From contig CAVRYU010000006.1 in NCBI GenBank assembly GCA_963725585.1, forward strand, positions 20,540 through 84,539: a stretch of DNA of 64,000 bases, given 5' to 3'. Within the stretch, counting starts at the first letter, position 1, and every line of letters starts with the position of its first letter. The position numbers and the translations under genes were made by a program. Below the pieces are notes generated by a model. It worked only from the letters and a program-made list of their open reading frames with translations. It searched no databases and was not told the DNA's origin. Shown here in pieces: positions 45,231 to 64,000 of the stretch. The DNA comes from an uncultured Bacteroidales bacterium (lineage in GTDB: Bacteria > Bacteroidota > Bacteroidia > Bacteroidales > VadinHA17).

Positions 45231-45337
45231 GGTTCTTGGTTTCTAAATTCCCCCTTTTAAGGGGGCGAGGGGGATGTTTCTTGATCTTGAATAATACCTG
45301 TCCGCTGGCAAGTATCCAACAACAAGCAACAAGCAAC
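45231..45337. repeat. Second copy of the CCCCCTT..AAGGGGG hairpin arm, flanked by 7-mer repeats
   Basis: CCCCCTTTTAAGGGGGCGAGGGGGATGT (45250-45277) versus 1115-1141; both are preceded by GGTTC(C/T)TGGTT; CAACAAG repeats at 45317-45337. Confidence 0.65.
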
Positions 45338-53500: not shown

Positions 53501-53571
53501 GTCGTTTTAACTCCCCAATATGATTTTCTTTGTATTTCTTATTATTTCTTGCTTTCTTTGCATGTCAAAAT

Positions 53572-53626
53572 CTGGTGGAGAAATTTGAGCTGATTGCAAC
53601 CACAGGAAAAAATGCTAAAATGCCAT
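53572..53626 (+). ncRNA. SAM-II-type riboswitch upstream of metK
   Basis: GTGG-AGAAATTTGAGCTGA-TTGCAA-CCAC...GCTAAAATGC matches the SAM-II pattern (GTGG..ATTTG..TTGC..CCAC..GCTAAA), and it lies in the 5' leader of SAM synthetase. Confidence 0.75.
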
Positions 53627-53668
53627 AATCCCTGTTTTCCAGTCAACCAAACTTCCCAGCATTTGTTC

Positions 53669-53753: not shown

Positions 53754-55094
53754 ATGGGCTATTTATTCACTTCCGAATCAGTTTCAGAAGGCCACCCCGA
53801 TAAGGTTGCCGATCAGATATCAGATGCCTTGCTTGACGAATTCCTCAAATGGGATCCGGAGTCAAGAGTTGCATGCGAGACTTTTGTAACCACAGGACTT
53901 GTCCTTTGCGGCGGAGAAGTTCGAACCGATGGCTGGGTGGATGTCCAGGAGACAGCCCGGCGGGTGATCAGGAAGATAGGCTATACAAAAGCCGAATACC
54001 GATTCGACTGCGACTCCTGCGGTGTTATTTCAACGATTCATGAGCAATCGAGCGATATAAGCCAGGGTGTGGTTCGCGAAAAACCCGAGGAACAGGGAGC
54101 CGGCGACCAGGGAATGATGTTCGGCTATGCATGTCGCGAAATGGATAACTTCATGCCTGTCAGCATCGAGCTCGCCCACATCCTTCTGCAGGAACTTGCC
54201 GCAATAAGGCACGAAGGGAAACAGATGAAATACCTCAGGCCCGACAGCAAATCGCAGGTTACAATAGAATATGATGACAATAACAAACCTGTCAGGATAG
54301 ATACAATTGTAATCAGCACCCAGCATGATGAGTTTGTCCTTCCAAAAGACAGATCTCAGAAGGCTGAGAAAGCCGCTGAGAGAGAGATGCAGAAAAAAAT
54401 TGCTGAGGACCTGAATAAATATCTAATCCCAAAAGTAAAGAAGACTCTTCCGGCAGAAATCAGGAAACTCTTTAAAAGCGACATTAAACTTCTTGTCAAT
54501 CCGACAGGTAAATTCGTAATAGGAGGACCCCACGGAGATACAGGTCTGACAGGCCGAAAAATCATAGTTGATACATATGGCGGTCATGGAGCTCACGGCG
54601 GAGGAGCATTTTCCGGGAAAGACTCATCAAAGGTTGACAGGTCGGCAGCCTATGCAGCTCGTCATATTGCCAAGAACCTTGTTGCTTCAGGAGTATGCGA
54701 CCAGGCGCTGATACAAATAGCTTATGCAATAGGCGTGGCGCAACCTGTCGGCTTATTCGTCAATACATATGGCACTGCAAAAGTAAAAGACAAAAAGGGA
54801 AATATTCTTCACGACAGTGAGATCCATCAAAACTGAAAGATCTTTTTGATCTGCGTCCATATTCAATTGTAAAGAATTCGGACTGAAAAATCCTATATTC
54901 TCACCGACCACTACATATGGTCATTTCGGACGCGACTATGAGGTAAAGGAAGTGGAAGTCTATTACGAAGTGCCTGGCTCCAGGCCTAAAACAGTAAACG
55001 GCAACGGTAAAAAAGTCTATACCAAAAAGGTCGAATTCTTTGCCTGGGAAAAGCTGGATTATGTCGACAAGATCAGGAAAGCATTCAATTGTAA
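53754..55094 (+). CDS. metK: S-adenosylmethionine synthetase; 3' end broken by about three indels
   Basis: [34 protein letters not shown] and GGGAFSGKD; downstream frames continue FDLRPY, YGHFGR and WEKLDYVD. Confidence 0.96.
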
Positions 55095-55268: not shown

Positions 55269-56222
55269 TCAGAATGCCTCCTTCACAATCCTCGCCACAT
55301 TATCGGACCTCCCAAGGGTATAGTAATGTATCCCCGGCACTCCCTCTTTTATAAGCTCTTTCGACTGCATTGCCGCCCATTCGATGCCAACCTCCCTGGC
55401 TTCTTTGTCGCTCTGGCATTTCTGAAGCGCAAGAACCAGATCATGAGGCATATCAATGTGGAAGGTCTGAGGAAGCAGATTAATGTCGTTCAACGCTGAG
55501 ATCGGCTTTATGCCGGCAATTATCGGGACATCTATTCCGATACACCTGCATTCATCCCGGAATCTGAAGAACTTTCTGTTATCGAAGAACATCTGGGTTA
55601 CAATGTAGGCGGCGCCCGAATCGACTTTGTGCTTAAGGTTTTCAAGATCAACCTGTCTGTTGGGAGCCTCAAAATGCTTTTCAGGATATCCTGCCACACC
55701 AATGCAGAATGATGTAGGTGCAGTATCTTCAAGAGATTCCTCCAGATACCTTCCGTTATTCATGTTGACAATCTGCTTCACAAGTTCAAACGTATGGGTG
55801 TGGCCCTCTTTCTCCGGAATAAATGTACGGCTCCCCTTCTGCGGATCACCCCTCAGGGCAAGTACATCATCGATTCCGAGGAAGTTCATCTCAATGAGCA
55901 CATTTTCCGTTTCTTCTTTGGTGAAACCTCCGCACAGCAGATGCGGTACAACCGGGATATTATATTTGTATTTTACAGCTGCTGCAAGGGCGATCGTCCC
56001 GGGTCTTTTTCTTACAACTCTCTTTTCAAGCAGTCCGTCAGGCCTTTCCCGGAATGTAGTCTCATTCCTGTGAGATGTAAAATTTATATAGGCCGGACTG
56101 AACTCGACAAGTCTGTCAATCGTGGAATAGACTCTTTCGATGCTGTGACCTTTCAGCGGCGGCAGTAATTCGAATGTAAACAAAGTGCCTTTCGCGTTCC
56201 TGATTTTATCAATAACACTCAT
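55269..56222 (-). CDS. metF: 5,10-methylenetetrahydrofolate reductase
   Basis: TFELLPP, VPHLLC, LALRGDP, VAGYPEKH, VTQMFFD and GIHYYT. Confidence 0.95.
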   Translation of the reverse strand: MSVIDKIRNAKGTLFTFELLPPLKGHSIERVYSTIDRLVEFSPAYINFTSHRNETTFRERPDGLLEKRVVRKRPGTIALAAAVKYKYNIPVVPHLLCGGFTKEETENVLIEMNFLGIDDVLALRGDPQKGSRTFIPEKEGHTHTFELVKQIVNMNNGRYLEESLEDTAPTSFCIGVAGYPEKHFEAPNRQVDLENLKHKVDSGAAYIVTQMFFDNRKFFRFRDECRCIGIDVPIIAGIKPISALNDINLLPQTFHIDMPHDLVLALQKCQSDKEAREVGIEWAAMQSKELIKEGVPGIHYYTLGRSDNVARIVKEAF

Positions 56223-56232
56223 ATATTCTCTT

Positions 56233-59200
56233 TCATAAATTCGGAGCAAGCCATCTGGCTGTCTCTTCAACACTCATTTTTTTCCGTGATGCATAATCCT
56301 TCAGCTGGTCCTCTCCTATCTTCCCGATATTGAAATAGACTGATCCGGGATGAGAGAAGATATAACCGCTTACCGCCGCAGGAGGTGTCATAGCGAAATT
56401 CTCAGTCAGCCCTGCACCAGTCAGCCTTTCTGCATCAAGAAGGTCAAAGATAGTGCGTTTTTCTGTATGATCAGGACAGGCAGGGTATCCGGGCGCAGGC
56501 CTGATCCCCCTGTATTTTATTTTTAAAAGATCTTCGATGCTCAGATCCTCATCGGCAGAATAACCCCAGTATTTCTTCCGGACCAGTTCGTGAAGATACT
56601 CGGCAGCTGCTTCAGCAATACGGTCGCTGAGGATCCTTATCATGATCAGGGCATAATCATCATCCTTGTAATTCCTGAGTGCTTCATTATCGAGTGTTGC
56701 AGTTACAACAAACGCCCCGATGTAGTCTGTAATCCCTGTAGATTCGGGAGCGATAAAATCAGAAAGCGAAAGATTGGGAATTCCTTTTTCCTTCGGTTCC
56801 TGGTTTCTCAGGAACCTGAAGGTTGTTTTAACTTCATTCTTATTCTTACCGTTAAGAACTCTTACATCATCGCCAGAGGAAACAGCCTTAAATAATCCAA
56901 AAATTCCATTGGCCTTCAGAAGTTTTCTGTCAATAATCTCCTGAAAATAGGTTTGCCCGTCATTAAAAAGCTTTTTAGCTTCTTCCCCCTTAACAGGATC
57001 CCCGAAGATTGCAGGGTATTTTCCCGACAACTTCCAGGCAAAGAAAAAGTAAGTCCAGTCGATATATTTTGCAAGTATATTGAGATCAAATTCTTCAATT
57101 AAATGAAGTCCGGGCTTTAATGGCGGATGTATCCTTGCTGATTTCCAGTTGGTAAACAGCCGGTTCTTCCGTGCCTCCTCCAGGGTGAGCAGCTTTTTAT
57201 CTGACTTTCGTGAATTGTGGTCATCAAGCATCTTTTTATATTTCTCCCTGATCGCATTGACATAATCAGAATTGTTTTCCCGGAGAAGTGAAGAGAGTAC
57301 CCCTGCCGCTTTTGAAGCATCCTTCACATGAACCACGGTTTTTGAATATGCAGGTGCGATTTTGACTGCCGCATGGATCTCGGAAGTCGTTGCCCCTCCA
57401 ATAAGAAGAGGCACCTCAATTTTTCTCCTCTGCATCTCGGATGCCACCAGAACCATCTCTTCAAGCGATGGGGTAATTAGTCCGCTGAGCCCTATGAAAT
57501 CAGCCTTTTCTTTGATTGCAGTATCGATAATTTTGTCAGCGGGTACCATTACACCAAGATCGATTACCTGGTAGTTATTACACGACAGAACTACTCCTAC
57601 AATATTCTTGCCTATATCATGAACATCTCCCTTAACTGTTGCAAGAAGTATTTTTCCTGCTGTTTTCTTTTCCTCCCCTTCGCTCTCTTTTTCAATATAC
57701 GGAGCCAGAACTGCCACTGCTTTTTTCATCACCCTGGCACTCTTCACTACCTGCGGAAGGAACATCTTTCCTGATCCGAACAGGTCGCCAACTTCATTCA
57801 TACCTCCCATCAGAGGACCTTCGATAACTTCAATCGAACGGCTGAATAACGGACGGGCTTCTTCAATATCACTTTCAATGAACTCATCAAGTCCCCGTTT
57901 GAGGGAATGCCTGATACGTTCCAGAACGGGAAGTGACCGCCATTCATCTGCTTTCTCTTCCTTTTTGCCTTCATTCTTTAATCCTTCGGCAAATTTTACA
58001 AGCCTTTCGGTGGCGTCTTTACGGCGGTTCAGTACAACATCTTCAGTAAGCTGAAGAAGATCAGGGGAGATTTCACTGTAAACCTGAAGCATGCCCGGAT
58101 TGACAATACCCATATCGAGACCTGCCTTTATAGCATGATAAAGGAACACCGAATGCATTGCTTCACGCACTTTGTCAATACCGCGGAATGAGAATGAGAG
58201 GTTGCTTATGCCACCACTGATCTTTGCATGGGGAAGGTTCTGCTTGATCCATTCTGCAGCTCTTAAGAAATTAACCGCATAGTTATTATGCTCCTCAATG
58301 CCTGTCGCAATGGCAAGCACATTGGGATCAAATATTATATCTTCAGGAGGAAAGCCTGCTTTTTCACAAAGAAGATTGTACGATCTTCCGGCTACCTCAA
58401 TTCTTTTTTCGAAGGTATCCGCCTGACCCTTTTCATCAAATAGCATCACAACAGCAGCAGCCCCGTATTTTCTTATTTTACGGGCATGATCGAGGAATAC
58501 CTTTTCTCCCTCTTTCAGGCTTATCGAATTGACAACCGATTTACCCTGAATGCACTTCAGTGCCGCCTCAATAACGCTCCATCTTGATGAGTCGATCATC
58601 AGAGGCAGCTTTGCAATATCGGGTTCTGACATTATAAGGTTGACGAATTTAACCATTGCCTTCTCCGAATCAAGCATTGCTTCATCCATGCAGATGTCGA
58701 TTATCTGGGCTCCACCCTCAACCTGTGTCCTTGCTATTGCAAGAGCCTCATCATATTTTTCTTCTTTTATAAGACGTGCAAATTTGATCGACCCCGAAAC
58801 ATTTGTACGTTCACCTATATTGACAAAATTCGTCCGGGGAGTAATTGTCAGAGCTTCAAGCCCGCTGAGTCTCGTATACTTTTCTATTTCCGGTTTTATC
58901 CGCGGTTTAAATTGTTTTGCTTTTTCTGCAATTTTTCGGATATGTTCCGGGGTTGTGCCGCAGCAGCCACCAATTATATTCACCCACCCTTCCTTCATGA
59001 AATCCTCAGCAACTGAAGCCATAAATTCAGCAGTCTGGTCATATTCACCGAACTGGTTCGGCAGTCCCGCATTCGGATGAGCTGAAACATAAAATCCTGC
59101 TTTTGCAGAGAGTTCCTGAATGTAGGGTCTCAGCTGTTCAGCTCCAAGGGCGCAGTTCAATCCGACACTGAACAGGGGAAAATGTGAAACAGATATCAGG

Positions 59201-59883
59201 AATGCTTCAAGGGTCTGGCCTGTCAGCGTCCTGCCGCTTGCATCAGTAATAGTACCGGATACCATTACGGGGAGGCGGATCGCTCTTTCCTCAAAAACCG
59301 TTTCAATTGCAAAAAGTGCTGCTTTGCAGTTCAGGACATCAAATATAGTTTCCACGAGCAGGATATCCGTTCCTCCGTCAATAAGTCCCCTGGCCTGTTC
59401 CGAATAAGCCTCCACCAGCTGATCAAACGTTACAGACCTGGCACCGGGATCATTTACGTCGGACGACATTGAAGCGGTCCGGTTTGTCGGTCCAAGAGTT
59501 CCAACTATAAAGTGACTTTCAGGTTTTGCTGAATTTTCAAATTGAGTGATTGCCTTTTCAACAAGCTTTGCCGACTGAAAATTCATCTCATAAACCAGGT
59601 CTTCCATGCCATAATCAGCCATCGAGATCCTGTTTGAATTGAAAGTATTTGTTGTTATCAGGTCTGCTCCTGCCTCGAGATACTCTTTATGAATATTCAG
59701 GATTATCTCCGGCTTTGTTAAAGACAGAATATCATTATTCCCTTTAAGAGGCTTTGGATGATCCCTGAATTGTTCACCGCGAAAATCAGCTTCCTGAAGC
59801 TTATGCTTCTGGATCATTGTCCCCATTGCACCATCGAGGATCAGGATGCGGTGTTGGATAATGTCTTCCAAATTATTTCTCAT
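56233..59883 (-). CDS. metH: Cobalamin-dependent methionine synthase (full-length)
   Basis: LDGAMGT, GGCCGT, IGERTNV, the B12 motif [13 protein letters not shown] and [12 protein letters not shown]. Confidence 0.98.
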
Positions 59884-59912
59884 CGGATTAAATCTGTTTC
59901 ATTTAGTTTTCA

Positions 59913-59988
59913 GGTTTGAGGTGTGTGGTATGAGGTGCGTGGAAGAACTCCAAATCATTGGCTTTCCTCATACCCCATACCCCGTACC

Positions 59989-59995
<7 letters not shown>
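59913..59995. repeat. Inverted 7-mer arrays (GGTATGA-like x4 / TCATACC-like x4) between hom and metH
   Basis: GGTTTGA GGTGTGT GGTATGA GGTGCGT ... TCATACC CCATACC CCGTACC TCATACC; the last unit contains the hom stop codon. Confidence 0.75.
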
Positions 59996-62514
<2,519 letters not shown>

Positions 62515-62534
62515 TTAATATTTTAAAATCGTTC

Positions 62535-62614
62535 CTACCCCCTTTCATTTTCCCCCAAGGGGGAAATGTAAAACTAACTCCGTCCCCTGTGGGGGAAGGT
62601 TGGGGAAGGGGGTA
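62535..62614. repeat. G/C-tract palindromic element in the met operon leader
   Basis: TACCCCCTT/AAGGGGGTA ends enclosing TTTCCCCC-AA-GGGGGAAA and CCCC-TGT-GGGG hairpins. Confidence 0.72.
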
Positions 62615-62667
62615 AACCCAAATGATCTGAATGATTAATGAAACCTGATTCCTTCCAGATCAACCCT

Positions 62668-62736
62668 TTACCATTCCATGCACATAGGCATAAGCGGCAG
62701 AAAGTGGCTTTTTTGAATCGAATGAAATGTTTTCAT
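62668..62736 (-). CDS. Putative Met/Cys-rich leader peptide MKTFHSIQKSHFLPLMPMCMEW
   Basis: 22-codon ORF with an A-rich Bacteroidota-type initiation region (AAATAAACACAAGAACA-ATG), located between the SAM-I aptamer and metY. The last seven codons hold three Met and one Cys. Confidence 0.65.
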   Translation of the reverse strand: MKTFHSIQKSHFLPLMPMCMEW

Positions 62737-62744
62737 TGTTCTTG

Positions 62745-62879
62745 TGTTTATTTTTATCATCTCCCGTTTTTCCGGGATTAGGTTTTGGCACCTTTCTCCG
62801 TCTGTCAGCTGACTGATGGATTGGTTGCCAGGGTTTCACAGAGCCTAATCTCTTCGCCCTTCTTAATAAAAATCAAACA
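62745..62879 (-). ncRNA. SAM-I (S-box) riboswitch controlling metY-hom-metH-metF
   Basis: The minus strand reads TTATTAAGAAGGGCGAAGAGATTAGGCTCTGTGAAACCCTGGCAACC...AAGGTGCCAAAACCTAATCCCG-GAAAAA-CGGGAGATGATAA, with the GCAACC/GGTGC core and P1, P2 and P4. Confidence 0.92.
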
Positions 62880-62913
62880 ACCTTAAATGGAAGGAATATT
62901 TGATTTGTGACTG

Positions 62914-62944
62914 CAAATGTATGAATGATTTTGAAAAATGCAAA
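62914..62944 (-). promoter_or_regulatory. Promoter TTTG-N19-TACATTTG driving the SAM-I leader
   Basis: -33 and -7 elements with 19-nt spacing about 35 bp upstream of the aptamer. Confidence 0.65.
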
Positions 62945-62973
62945 AAAATGATTACCCACTTTACCTTTTTTTA

Positions 62974-63074
62974 CCTTTCCCCAAACCCCTCCCCCAGGAG
63001 GGAGGGGCTTAAACTATTGTTAATCTGAATTATAGCCCCCTTCTCTCCTGGGAGAAGGGGGTTGGGGGATGAGG
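62974..63074. repeat. G/C-tract palindromic element (two inverted hairpin arms)
   Basis: CCTTTCCCCAAACCCCTCCC-CCAGGA-GGGAGGGGCT ... AGCCCCCTTCTC-TCCTGG-GAGAAGGGGGTTGGGGGATGAGG. Confidence 0.78.
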
Positions 63075-63119
63075 CCGACTTAGCACCAGAGAGTGGTTTG
63101 AAGGAGTTTTTGTCCTCTA

Positions 63120-63219
63120 ACCACGGCTTTAAACGGAGTTTAACACAGAGTTGCACGGATTTACTTCAATTCTCAAAAAAACAGTGCGACTCCGTATTGA
63201 CTCCGTGAGACTCTGTGGT
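63120..63219. repeat. Imperfect inverted repeat built from CAC(A/G)GAG units
   Basis: ACCACGGCTTTAAACGGAGTTTAACACAGAGTTGCACGG versus the reverse complement of the right arm, ACCACAGAGTCTCACGGAGTCAATACGGAGTCGCACTG. Confidence 0.7.
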
Positions 63220-63326
63220 AAAAACGTAGTTAGTATGAAATCCAGGTGGTTTATCCCTAAAGAAAACTCCGTCGTGGTGAGATTCTATTTTTTACTTTAC
63301 TTTTGTATCAAATCAATGTTTGGCAA

Positions 63327-64000
63327 ATGCAGAATAACTTTACAATCTATAACAGTCTTTCAAGACAGAAAGAATTATTCAAACCCCTTCATCCGCCATT
63401 CGTAGGGCTTTATGTTTGCGGTCCGACAGTTTACAGTAATGCTCATCTGGGCCATGCAAGACCGGCAATTACGTTCGACCTTCTTTACAGGTATCTTATG
63501 CATATCGGATATAAAGTCAGGTATGTACGTAATATTACCGATGTCGGTCATCTCGAGAATGATGCTGATGAGGGTGAGGATAAGATTGAAAAGACTGCCC
63601 GCATTGAACATCTTGAACCCATGGAGGTTGTTCAGAATTACATGAACACCTTCCACAGGAATATGGATCAGCTGAATACTCTTAAACCTTCGATTGAACC
63701 ACGGGCCTCCGGACATATAATAGAACAACAGGAATTTATAAAGCATCTGCTTGATAAAGGTTATGCGTATGAGGTAAATGGTTCAGTCTATTTTGACGTA
63801 TTTAAGTATAACAAGAAGTATAAATACGGAAAACTCTCAGGCCGTGTTCTTGAGGATCTTCAGGCAAATACAAGGGTTCTTGAAGGTCAGGATGAAAAAC
63901 ATAATCCGTTTGATTTTGCGCTCTGGAAAAAGGCGACACCCGAACACCTTATGAAATGGTCATCGCAATGGAGCAATGGATATCCCGGATGGCATCTCGA
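63327..64000 (+). CDS. cysS: Cysteine--tRNA ligase, 3'-partial (runs off the window end)
   Basis: [47 protein letters not shown] and GYPGWHLE; TACTTTTG -7 box at 63298-63305. Confidence 0.96.

Follow-up and report, generated by a model that had tools for sequence, protein, structure and literature searches.

A SAM-I riboswitch followed by a Met/Cys-rich leader peptide gene ahead of metY operons in Bacteroidia: a plausible two-input attenuator

The methionine operon metY-hom-metH-metF of an uncultured Bacteroidales bacterium (lineage VadinHA17; GenBank assembly GCA_963725585.1) is preceded by a SAM-I riboswitch aptamer, which senses S-adenosylmethionine (SAM), and by a 22-codon leader open reading frame (ORF) that starts just behind the aptamer and ends in a cluster of methionine and cysteine codons. 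Both lie on the minus strand of a 64,000-nucleotide (nt) stretch of contig CAVRYU010000006.1 (positions 20,540 to 84,539), hereafter the window. A preliminary reading of the letters alone (the sequence-only reading) had given the order on this strand as aptamer, 22-codon ORF, G/C palindrome and metY-hom-metH-metF, and each of these elements is found where it had been placed. Comparison with relatives strongly supports the existence, the conservation and the Met/Cys character of the leader peptide; coupling between riboswitch and leader, and the mechanism of termination, are plausible. The whole is interpreted here, with a probability of about 0.6, as a composite attenuator of the operon with two inputs, one through the SAM-I aptamer and one through the Met/Cys leader peptide. 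The parts of the leader on which the argument turns are these:

62751..62872, minus strand: SAM-I riboswitch aptamer (RF00162, by covariance model), with a P1 helix made entirely of A/U.
62745..62758, minus strand: 3' strand of P1 with its extension (GAUAAAAAU-AAACA); it spans -22 to -9 relative to the leader AUG and pairs with 62879-62865.
62721..62737, minus strand: local hairpin AAUGAAA-ACA-UUUCAUU that holds the leader AUG, as predicted by folding.
62668..62736, minus strand: leader ORF of 22 codons (62736-62671) plus stop (62670-62668), MKTFHSIQKSHFLPLMPMCMEW, from sequence and genus alignment.
62677..62691, minus strand: putative sensor codons M16-P-M-C-M20, overlapping a CAUGCC..GCAUG hairpin, from the alignment.

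The aptamer had been called from the letters as SAM-I, and the Rfam model agrees: the segment 62872-62751 scores 68.3 bits (E 8.1e-14), where the gathering score is 44.4, and spans model positions 1-108 of 108. It is the single SAM-I in the window's genome, which is 86.7% complete. The full-model score and the position in the 5' leader of methionine genes are those of a SAM-I riboswitch, and the expression platform usual for the family, a terminator/antiterminator or sequestration of a Shine-Dalgarno (SD) sequence, is missing; the AUG of a short ORF lies 14 nt past the aptamer end instead. As judged from its sequence, the element is thus a SAM-I riboswitch by aptamer that lacks the family's usual expression platforms. 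Automatic ORF calling gives the leader 30 amino acids, from an in-frame ATG at 62760. This ATG sits inside the 3' strand of the aptamer, and its equivalent is out of frame with the conserved ORF, or separated from it by a stop, in about one third of the relatives' loci; position 62736 is therefore taken as the leader start.

The Met/Cys-rich end recurs widely in the class. Loci were collected around 80 metY relatives from other Bacteroidia, Pedobacter, Pontibacter, Hymenobacter, Adhaeribacter, Spirosoma, Marivirga, Algoriphagus, Saprospiraceae and Lentimicrobiaceae among them, and 45 of the 80 have a SAM-I aptamer upstream of metY. Every one of these 45 metY-type aptamers is followed, at most 20 nt past its end, by an ATG that opens an ORF of 12-70 codons, and the last 10 codons of this ORF hold at least two Met/Cys in 43 cases and at least four in 36. 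Peptides from different lineages vary in length from 13 to 59 residues and are unrelated save for their ends, as in ..FMRMQTCCCCC, ..GCCCCCNFSG, ..NSCCCCCCFN, ..YMRMCMCCCC, ..NMQLMMCMCIRMY and ..KRMRMRTCGACCC.

Among 112 Bacteroidia SAM-I loci, 75 have an ATG at most 20 nt past the aptamer that opens an ORF of 12-70 codons. These 75 ORFs were grouped into 31 sequence clusters, defined blind to Met/Cys content, and one representative per cluster was counted; after shuffling, a mean of 5.3 of the 31 representatives have an ORF so positioned. Met and Cys together fill 121 of the 310 codons of the tails (39%), the tail being the last 10 codons, and 43 of the 778 remaining ORF codons (5.5%). Read in frame, the tails hold 3.9 Met+Cys per 10 codons, against 0.92 for the same 30 nt out of frame and a mean of 0.58 in 1000 dinucleotide shuffles. 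At least four Met/Cys occur in the tails of 19 of the 31 clusters, and the largest number of such clusters in any of the 1000 shuffles is 1. The sequence-only reading had named this test beforehand (RF00162 hits, conserved short ORFs behind them, C-terminal Met/Cys against shuffled controls), and its outcome is strongly positive. The independent lineages are fewer than 31, because some clusters are still related to each other (among them several Pedobacter-like and Pontibacter ones), and L007 is from the window's genus. The geometry is narrow: over the 25 Met/Cys-tailed clusters, the last Met/Cys codon stands 0-5 codons before the stop and the AUG 2-14 nt (median 9) past the aptamer. From other classes of the same phylum, 28 SAM-I loci were compared: 14 carry an ORF so placed, but these ORFs are not conserved and all have 0-1 Met/Cys in the tail.

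Within the window's genus, the small ORF to which the sequence-only reading had drawn attention is conserved in the manner of a protein-coding gene. Genus leaders were gathered by an RF00162 search of the relatives' genomes and from the loci around metY relatives, and the 29 of ordinary length were aligned. The 66-nt ORF has no indel in any of the 29, and the flanks on both sides have many. Column entropy over codons 2-12 is 0.43, 0.47 and 1.04 at codon positions 1, 2 and 3, respectively. His5 is invariant and N10 and F11 are conserved; Leu6 is kept through five different codons, and Pro14, Leu15, Asn10, Phe11 and Ile12 each swap synonymous codons. The stop stands at one shared position in 26 of 28 sequences, as TAA, TAG or TGA. 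By the Nei-Gojobori method, the ratio of nonsynonymous to synonymous changes (pN/pS) comes to 0.285 when the ORF frame is read, and the two remaining frames give 1.59 and 1.04. This substitution signature strongly supports a selected peptide gene of the translated type. Two marks by which a leader attenuator is recognized are therefore at hand, namely a conserved ORF with a coding signature and end-product codons clustered near its end.

The leader type, as far as sequence comparison goes, is a distinct class of SAM-I loci tied mainly to metY operons. In an unbiased sample of Bacteroidia genomes, from which 40 SAM-I loci were fetched, seven have an ORF in place and four of these are Met/Cys-tailed, three ahead of metY (L160, L165 and L180) and one ahead of another gene (L176). 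In the same sample, SAM-I ahead of metH stands directly before the gene. Plain U-tailed terminators follow SAM-I before cystathionine-type genes and before metY in family f28; Bacteroidia loci with a plain terminator include L137, L148 and L153. One relative (L030) has the leader type ahead of a metA-like gene. The P1 ends of the leader-type aptamers are also set apart, with 1.36 G+C among the 16 outermost nt against 4.81 in other Bacteroidia SAM-I. Typical leader-type P1 ends read GAUUUAUAAAG...UAUAAAUU, as in L078, L088, L160, L165, L180 and the window (62865-62872/62751-62758). In another class of the phylum, family f40 (L111-L121, L129-L136, L138 and L140) has a conserved RNA segment, UAUGCAUGCC...UUCAUACCUCUCUU, after SAM-I; the ORFs in it vary in length and have early stops, so that it looks from its sequence like an RNA-only platform, and it serves here as a negative control.

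At 35 of the 80 metY loci there is no SAM-I, and some of these keep the leader. In two species of the window's genus (L033 and L036, metY 86% identical), the promoter region, the start of the 5' leader and the leader ORF (MK[T/K]FHLINNNFIMPLMPMCMCR, at ~925-1085 of each locus) are retained and the entire aptamer is gone, leaving a gap of ~126 alignment columns. In a species of Marinilabiliaceae (L104), a stand-alone leader ending ..FMMMGMMCSMMMSC / ..SLFMMMGMMCSMMMSC lies at ~980-1100, before metY, and the upstream 1200 nt hold no Rfam element. To judge from these sequences, the peptide module evidently functions, or at any rate is kept, in the absence of a riboswitch. Since three species (L033, L036 and L104) keep the leader without the aptamer, the peptide module is autonomous; it would be the core attenuator, with the aptamer an added input and not the primary switch. 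A riboswitch-less, Met/Cys-tailed leader ending ..GFIMPPCFMSML is also seen in L057 (Prolixibacteraceae, ~915-1015), and most metY loci of Prolixibacteraceae and Draconibacterium have neither an aptamer nor such an ORF.

The connection between aptamer and leader lies in P1. The sequence-only reading had noted that P1 can be extended over positions -22 to -9 of the leader AUG, and this pairing is present and conserved in the genus. In the window, UGUUU-G-AUUUUUAUU (62879-62865) pairs with GAUAAAAAU-AAACA (62758-62745) on the minus strand, and the helix of P1 and extension ends 8 nt before the AUG. In the genus relatives, GUGUUU/AAACAC continues P1 beyond a small bulge, and the pairing survives two-sided changes in L015 (U-A) and in L029 and L045 (C-G). 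Over all clusters, the extension has 3.39 pairs against 2.56 ± 0.35 in mismatched 5'/3' flanks, a value reached by 22 of 2000 permutations. In partition-function folding, the unpaired probability of -22..-9 is 0 when P1 and its extension are enforced and 0.95 when the 5' strand is held open. The gap of just 2-14 nt leaves no separate expression platform between aptamer and AUG. Bacteroidetes mRNAs are without SD sequences and their initiation is tuned by mRNA structure, according to the accessible text of PMC6847099; because initiation is SD-less and tuned by structure, the A-rich single strand before the AUG is a plausible landing site for ribosomes that would be removed by SAM-bound P1. From this geometry we infer gating of leader translation by SAM. 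By placement, the locus resembles a composite leader such as that of mgtA: it combines a ligand-sensing RNA with a putatively codon-sensing upstream ORF (uORF), close enough for the conformation of the former to bear on the latter.

A further structure may take part in this gating:

62873..62903, minus strand: 5' leader hairpin UCAAAUA..CCUU..AAGG..UGUUUGA, whose 3' arm is shared with the 5' strand of the P1 extension, from the minimum-free-energy fold of the full leader.

Across 40 genus leaders the sequence of this hairpin hardly varies, the one compensatory variant being UCUU/AAGA in L014, and in the model the hairpin could compete with the P1 extension.

The mechanism proposed for the composite attenuator would run as follows. 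The codons at the leader end (M-P-M-C-M in the window, CCCCC or M-x-M runs elsewhere) would tie the transit of the ribosome to the supply of charged Met- and Cys-tRNA. P1 stabilised by SAM would remove the A-rich landing site and so veto translation of the leader by ribosomes that do not use SD sequences and that depend on unpaired, A-rich RNA ahead of the start codon. A ribosome stalled at the leader end would let transcription, or the transcript, continue into metY by shielding the following RNA from Rho. When the leader is untranslated because SAM is bound, or is rapidly completed because Met and Cys are plentiful, Rho would terminate before metY. The resulting logic would be that of a starvation sensor with a SAM veto. 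We infer P1 gating, the sensing of tRNA charging and the role of Rho from the features described; the read-out step, in which the stalled ribosome protects RNA from Rho, is the weakest part of this explanation and is put forward tentatively, at somewhat less than an even chance. A bolder form of the proposal has a similarly tentative standing: metY-type SAM-I would act solely by closing the landing site of the leader, the leader would be the first known attenuator that reads Met- and Cys-tRNA, its stall would block Rho, the operon would be on only when both SAM and charging are low, and the leader would be the older part, with the aptamer repeatedly gained and lost.

The absence of a U-tailed terminator behind the aptamer, claimed from the letters, is confirmed by a consensus scan, which leaves the minus strand of 62300-63400 without any terminator-like site and gives one on the plus strand against 0.9 expected. 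An intrinsic terminator was considered as the read-out and rejected: a permissive scan for a hairpin with a T-run is blank in 15 of 33 leaders, and its finds in the other 18 are scattered and non-conserved, some of them inside the ORF. Nor does RNAalifold draw a terminator/antiterminator pair on the 29 genus leaders, so that the hallmark of a classical attenuator is absent there. It draws two short helices alone, the CAUG hairpin and a pairing of AGAUGA (3' end of the aptamer) with UCAUCU (codons 5-6), without two-sided changes; a sequestor/anti-sequestor switch built of these two helices is a lead only, from modelling. Rho acting on a C-rich spacer is the most likely executor, because there is no conserved intrinsic terminator. 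In the 80 nt past the leader stop, C exceeds G in 25 of the 31 clusters (C/G 1.43, given without a baseline from other leaders). Of 30 genus genomes, 28 encode Rho (PF07497), in long forms of ~600-650 residues; among these are 19 of 19 high-quality genomes. These signs pointing to Rho are weakly suggestive.

The region between the leader stop and metY contains two further features in the window:

62623..62662, minus strand: hairpin UGAUCUG...CAGAUCA after the ORF, enclosing UGGAAGGAAU (62657-62648), predicted at -8.4 kcal/mol.
62534..62612, minus strand: G/C-rich palindromic block (C5/G5) between leader and metY, from the sequence and its relatives.

The former realizes the pairing of TGATCTG with a downstream CAGATCA that had been noticed after the stop, as a predicted hairpin at 62662-62623. 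The segment which it encloses, UGGAAGGAAU, is the perfect 10-nt complement of AUUCCUUCCA (62897-62888), near the 5' end of the leader, and pairing of the two would loop aptamer and ORF together. As a general feature this long-range pairing was rejected: z is below -1.64 in just 9 of 40 genus leaders, those of the window's subclade and a few others. The palindromic block explains the greater length of the window's leader, 254 nt against ~190 nt in most members of the genus, and similar G/C blocks stand in the same position in six of the seven leaders of the window's subclade. Palindromes of C5-loop-G5 type recur between genes of the window, at 62534-62612, 62979-63066, 1115-1130 and 45250-45265 (three strict matches against 0.22 expected), and sit both before the promoter and within the metY leader; they may be repeats resembling repetitive extragenic palindromic (REP) elements or part of a regulatory structure.

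Two other structures past the leader were noticed by eye in relatives. In the Pedobacter-like loci L078, L084, L093, L098 and L101, a conserved stem AAUCUUCC...GGAAGG lies ~20-80 nt past the leader stop and is followed by a hairpin with covarying arms (UCCCG/CGGGA, UCUCGA/UCGAGA, CCCUAA/UUAGGG, CCUCUU/AAGAGG). After the hairpin comes UACGC, and a U tract is absent; this stem and hairpin may decide read-through in that lineage. The Pontibacter loci L088, L110 and L108 and the genus loci L019, L021 and L046 have a small hairpin CAGG-(N)-UAUACCUG between leader ORF and metY, and the leaders that carry it are otherwise dissimilar between the lineages.

Several points weigh against the composite attenuator and are set out together here. 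On the side of the gate, folding predicts an AUG that is almost never unpaired (probability 0.01), whichever state P1 is in, and the hairpin that holds it recurs in L033 and L036, which have no aptamer; this hairpin is thus not specific to the riboswitch, its role as a riboswitch sequestor is weakened, and P1 may not limit initiation. The excess of P1-extension pairs over mismatched flanks is modest across clusters. On the side of the sensor, methionine starvation impairs initiation too, which complicates a sensor made of Met codons. Among 28 genus sequences P17 is always CCT and neither M18 nor M20 varies, and RNAalifold draws the CAUG hairpin over the Met codons without covariation; given this fixed CCT and the CAUG palindromes that the Met codons overlap, a constraint at the RNA level acts here too. 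The N-terminal half of the peptide is under selection at the amino-acid level, which a pure codon-counting sensor would not need. As to Rho, the bias of C over G has no genome-wide baseline, and in the window C23 and G14 in the 80 nt past the stop are followed by the reverse, G22 and C9 at 80-160 nt, where the G/C-rich repeat block lies. A search of the window's own genome for the RNA-binding domain of Rho gave no match, which is uninformative in an assembly that is 86.7% complete.

Some of these points would be met by two independent regulators acting in series, with the leader sensing Met/Cys-tRNA and SAM-I acting otherwise than through leader initiation, for example by exposure of the transcript to Rho or RNase or by a change in pausing of RNA polymerase. 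The retention of the leader in the aptamer-less L033, L036 and L104 fits such a pair, as do an AUG hairpin that is identical with and without the aptamer and the modest P1-extension signal across clusters. The pair is nonetheless unlikely, given that the 2-14 nt between aptamer and AUG are too few for a separate platform and contain no terminator, that P1 necessarily overlaps the zone which an initiating ribosome occupies, and that the shared, unusually weak A/U P1 suggests tuning to something local. Quite unlikely is a riboswitch-controlled uORF of which translation itself matters, by protecting the transcript or opening structure, with Met and Cys incidental to the CAUG hairpins. Translated leaders controlled by riboswitches are known from the B12 switches of Mycobacterium tuberculosis (accessible text of PMC11260477), and in the genus the Met codons do coincide with the CAUG..CAUG hairpin, with no nucleotide change in codons 17-20. 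Incidental codons would leave unexplained, however, that runs of TGT/TGC Cys codons (CCCCC, CCCCCC), which are not palindromic, recur in unrelated lineages, that the enrichment is confined to the reading frame (3.9 vs 0.92 per 10 codons), and that riboswitch-less leaders retain the Met/Cys tail; the leader stop, at 100-250 nt from metY, is also too distant for reinitiation.

An arrest peptide of the TnaC or SpeFL kind, with a nascent chain that stalls the ribosome jointly with methionine, homocysteine or SAM in the exit tunnel and so senses a free metabolite instead of tRNA charging, would account for purifying selection on the whole 22-residue peptide (H5, L6, N10, F11; pN/pS 0.29) and for the Pro-Met motifs near the stop, and precedents are reviewed in PMC12360218 (accessible part). 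It is very unlikely, since the conservation of the peptide was measured in one genus only, since the lineages share just the Met/Cys-rich end on peptides of 13-59 residues, and since homopolymeric Cys runs are the classical signature of a tRNA-charging sensor. The absence of any peptide, with an RNA-only expression platform and an accidental ORF, is effectively excluded by the coding substitution signature. The two conserved helices that RNAalifold draws in the region would suit it; third-position bias, synonymous turnover, interchangeable stops, the lack of indels and a pN/pS of 0.29 in one frame only would not, nor would the recurrence of the same type of tail on unrelated ORFs across the phylum.

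The remaining features of the locus are as follows:

62914..62921, minus strand: promoter-like -7 box TACATTTG with TTTG ~20 nt upstream, as read from the sequence.
61192..62496, minus strand: gene of a metY-like O-acetylhomoserine sulfhydrylase, the first of the operon (Pfam Cys_Met_Meta_PP, E 9.3e-130).
55269..61195, minus strand: hom (two frames), metH and metF (Pfam Homoserine_dh; Met_synt_B12/S-methyl_trans/Pterin_bind/B12-binding; MTHFR).

The promoter consensus of Bacteroidota is TAnnTTTG, and a sigma-70 promoter scan is poorly suited to this phylum; the promoter-like stretch at 62914..62921 is conserved in L033 and L036, the relatives that lack the aptamer. By Pfam matches, metH lies at 59883-56233 and MTHFR (metF) at 56273-55269 on the minus strand. 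The hom gene is split into overlapping minus-strand ORFs at 60386-61195 and 59989-60516, both with a partial match to Pfam Homoserine_dh, and the closest relative (L031) has it undivided, as a single frame of 400 codons or more; the split in the window would be either a frameshift or an assembly error. On the plus strand, RF01726 marks a long-loop SAM-II aptamer at 53569-53628 (49.5 bits; gathering score 44), ~125 nt upstream of metK (53754-54836, 360 amino acids), which encodes SAM synthetase; with SAM-II before metK and SAM-I before the metY operon, this genome uses two classes of SAM riboswitch. In public RNA data, where small shares only of the sampled sequence words were present, two metatranscriptome contigs from close relatives in two studies span 62647-62816 and 62647-62798, although such contigs do not show transcription, transcript ends or levels; the region under both comprises the 3' part of the aptamer and the leader ORF.

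The action of riboswitches in a phylum without SD sequences is poorly understood, and for one widespread class the present arrangement offers an answer that can be tested, namely control of a leader ORF and not of the gene. If it is true, methionine joins the amino acids that are sensed by leader peptides, which is not obvious in view of its other role in initiation, and the leader would be the second natural two-input switch that combines an RNA sensor with a ribosome sensor, after the Mg2+/proline leaders of enterobacteria. Direct testing is possible because the element occurs in cultivable Pedobacter, Pontibacter, Hymenobacter and Marivirga, and the natural aptamer-less variants are ready controls. 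For annotation, genes of ~20-60 codons directly after SAM-I ahead of metY of Bacteroidia should be called. The combination of riboswitch and Met/Cys leader is apparently previously undescribed: neither a Met/Cys leader behind a SAM riboswitch nor a Met-codon leader peptide was found in a literature search that left subscription journals and supplements (such as the list of small ORFs of PMC7366714) outside its scope. The accessible text of PMC7366714, on the transcriptome of Bacteroides thetaiotaomicron, likens small ORFs to leader peptides in general terms only.

Each part of the proposed attenuator has a counterpart among known systems, and a survey of 2004 reportedly lists candidates in Bacteroidetes/Chlorobi. 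In trpL and hisL, as here, a short leader ORF with codons for the end product clustered near its 3' end precedes a biosynthetic operon; unlike these, the present leader has no conserved terminator/antiterminator with a U tract, combines Met with Cys, and has a riboswitch fused upstream. Leaders of the Mycobacterium cys operon and of Bifidobacterium cbs have Cys-codon runs near the stop and no conserved terminator hairpin, and a tna-like mechanism involving Rho has been proposed for these actinobacterial leaders (PMC1262725, accessible part). They lack a riboswitch and Met codons, and belong to another phylum and to other target genes. Attenuation by Rho that depends on a uORF has been reviewed (PMC12360218, accessible part); in tnaC and speFL, a ribosome stalled at the end of the uORF shields the Rut site from Rho. 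The Met/Cys codons described here, 0-5 codons from the stop, are placed as for a ribosome held at the uORF end in the same way, whereas in tnaC and speFL a free ligand and a specific nascent peptide cause the stall and here the codon runs point to tRNA charging. In the B12 switches of M. tuberculosis (metE and ppe2), a riboswitch controls a translated short ORF that modulates the downstream gene; the uORFs of these switches are not reported as amino-acid sensors in the accessible text of PMC11260477, and ppe2 works by termination-reinitiation, whereas the present leader has a Met/Cys tail and a stop 100-250 nt from metY. The closest likeness in design is to Salmonella mgtA, in which a Mg2+-sensing RNA and the Pro-codon uORF mgtL act with Rho, and to corA/corL: a ligand-sensing RNA and a sensor uORF share one leader, and translation of the uORF over particular codons reshapes this leader, decides Rho-dependent read-through and integrates two signals (PMC12360218, accessible part). 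The metY leader, known from sequence alone, differs from mgtA in that SAM would be sensed by a canonical SAM-I aptamer, in that the ORF starts just past the aptamer and not inside it, in that its host phylum is without SD sequences, and in that the putative sensor codons, Met and Cys, stand for products of the regulated pathway itself.

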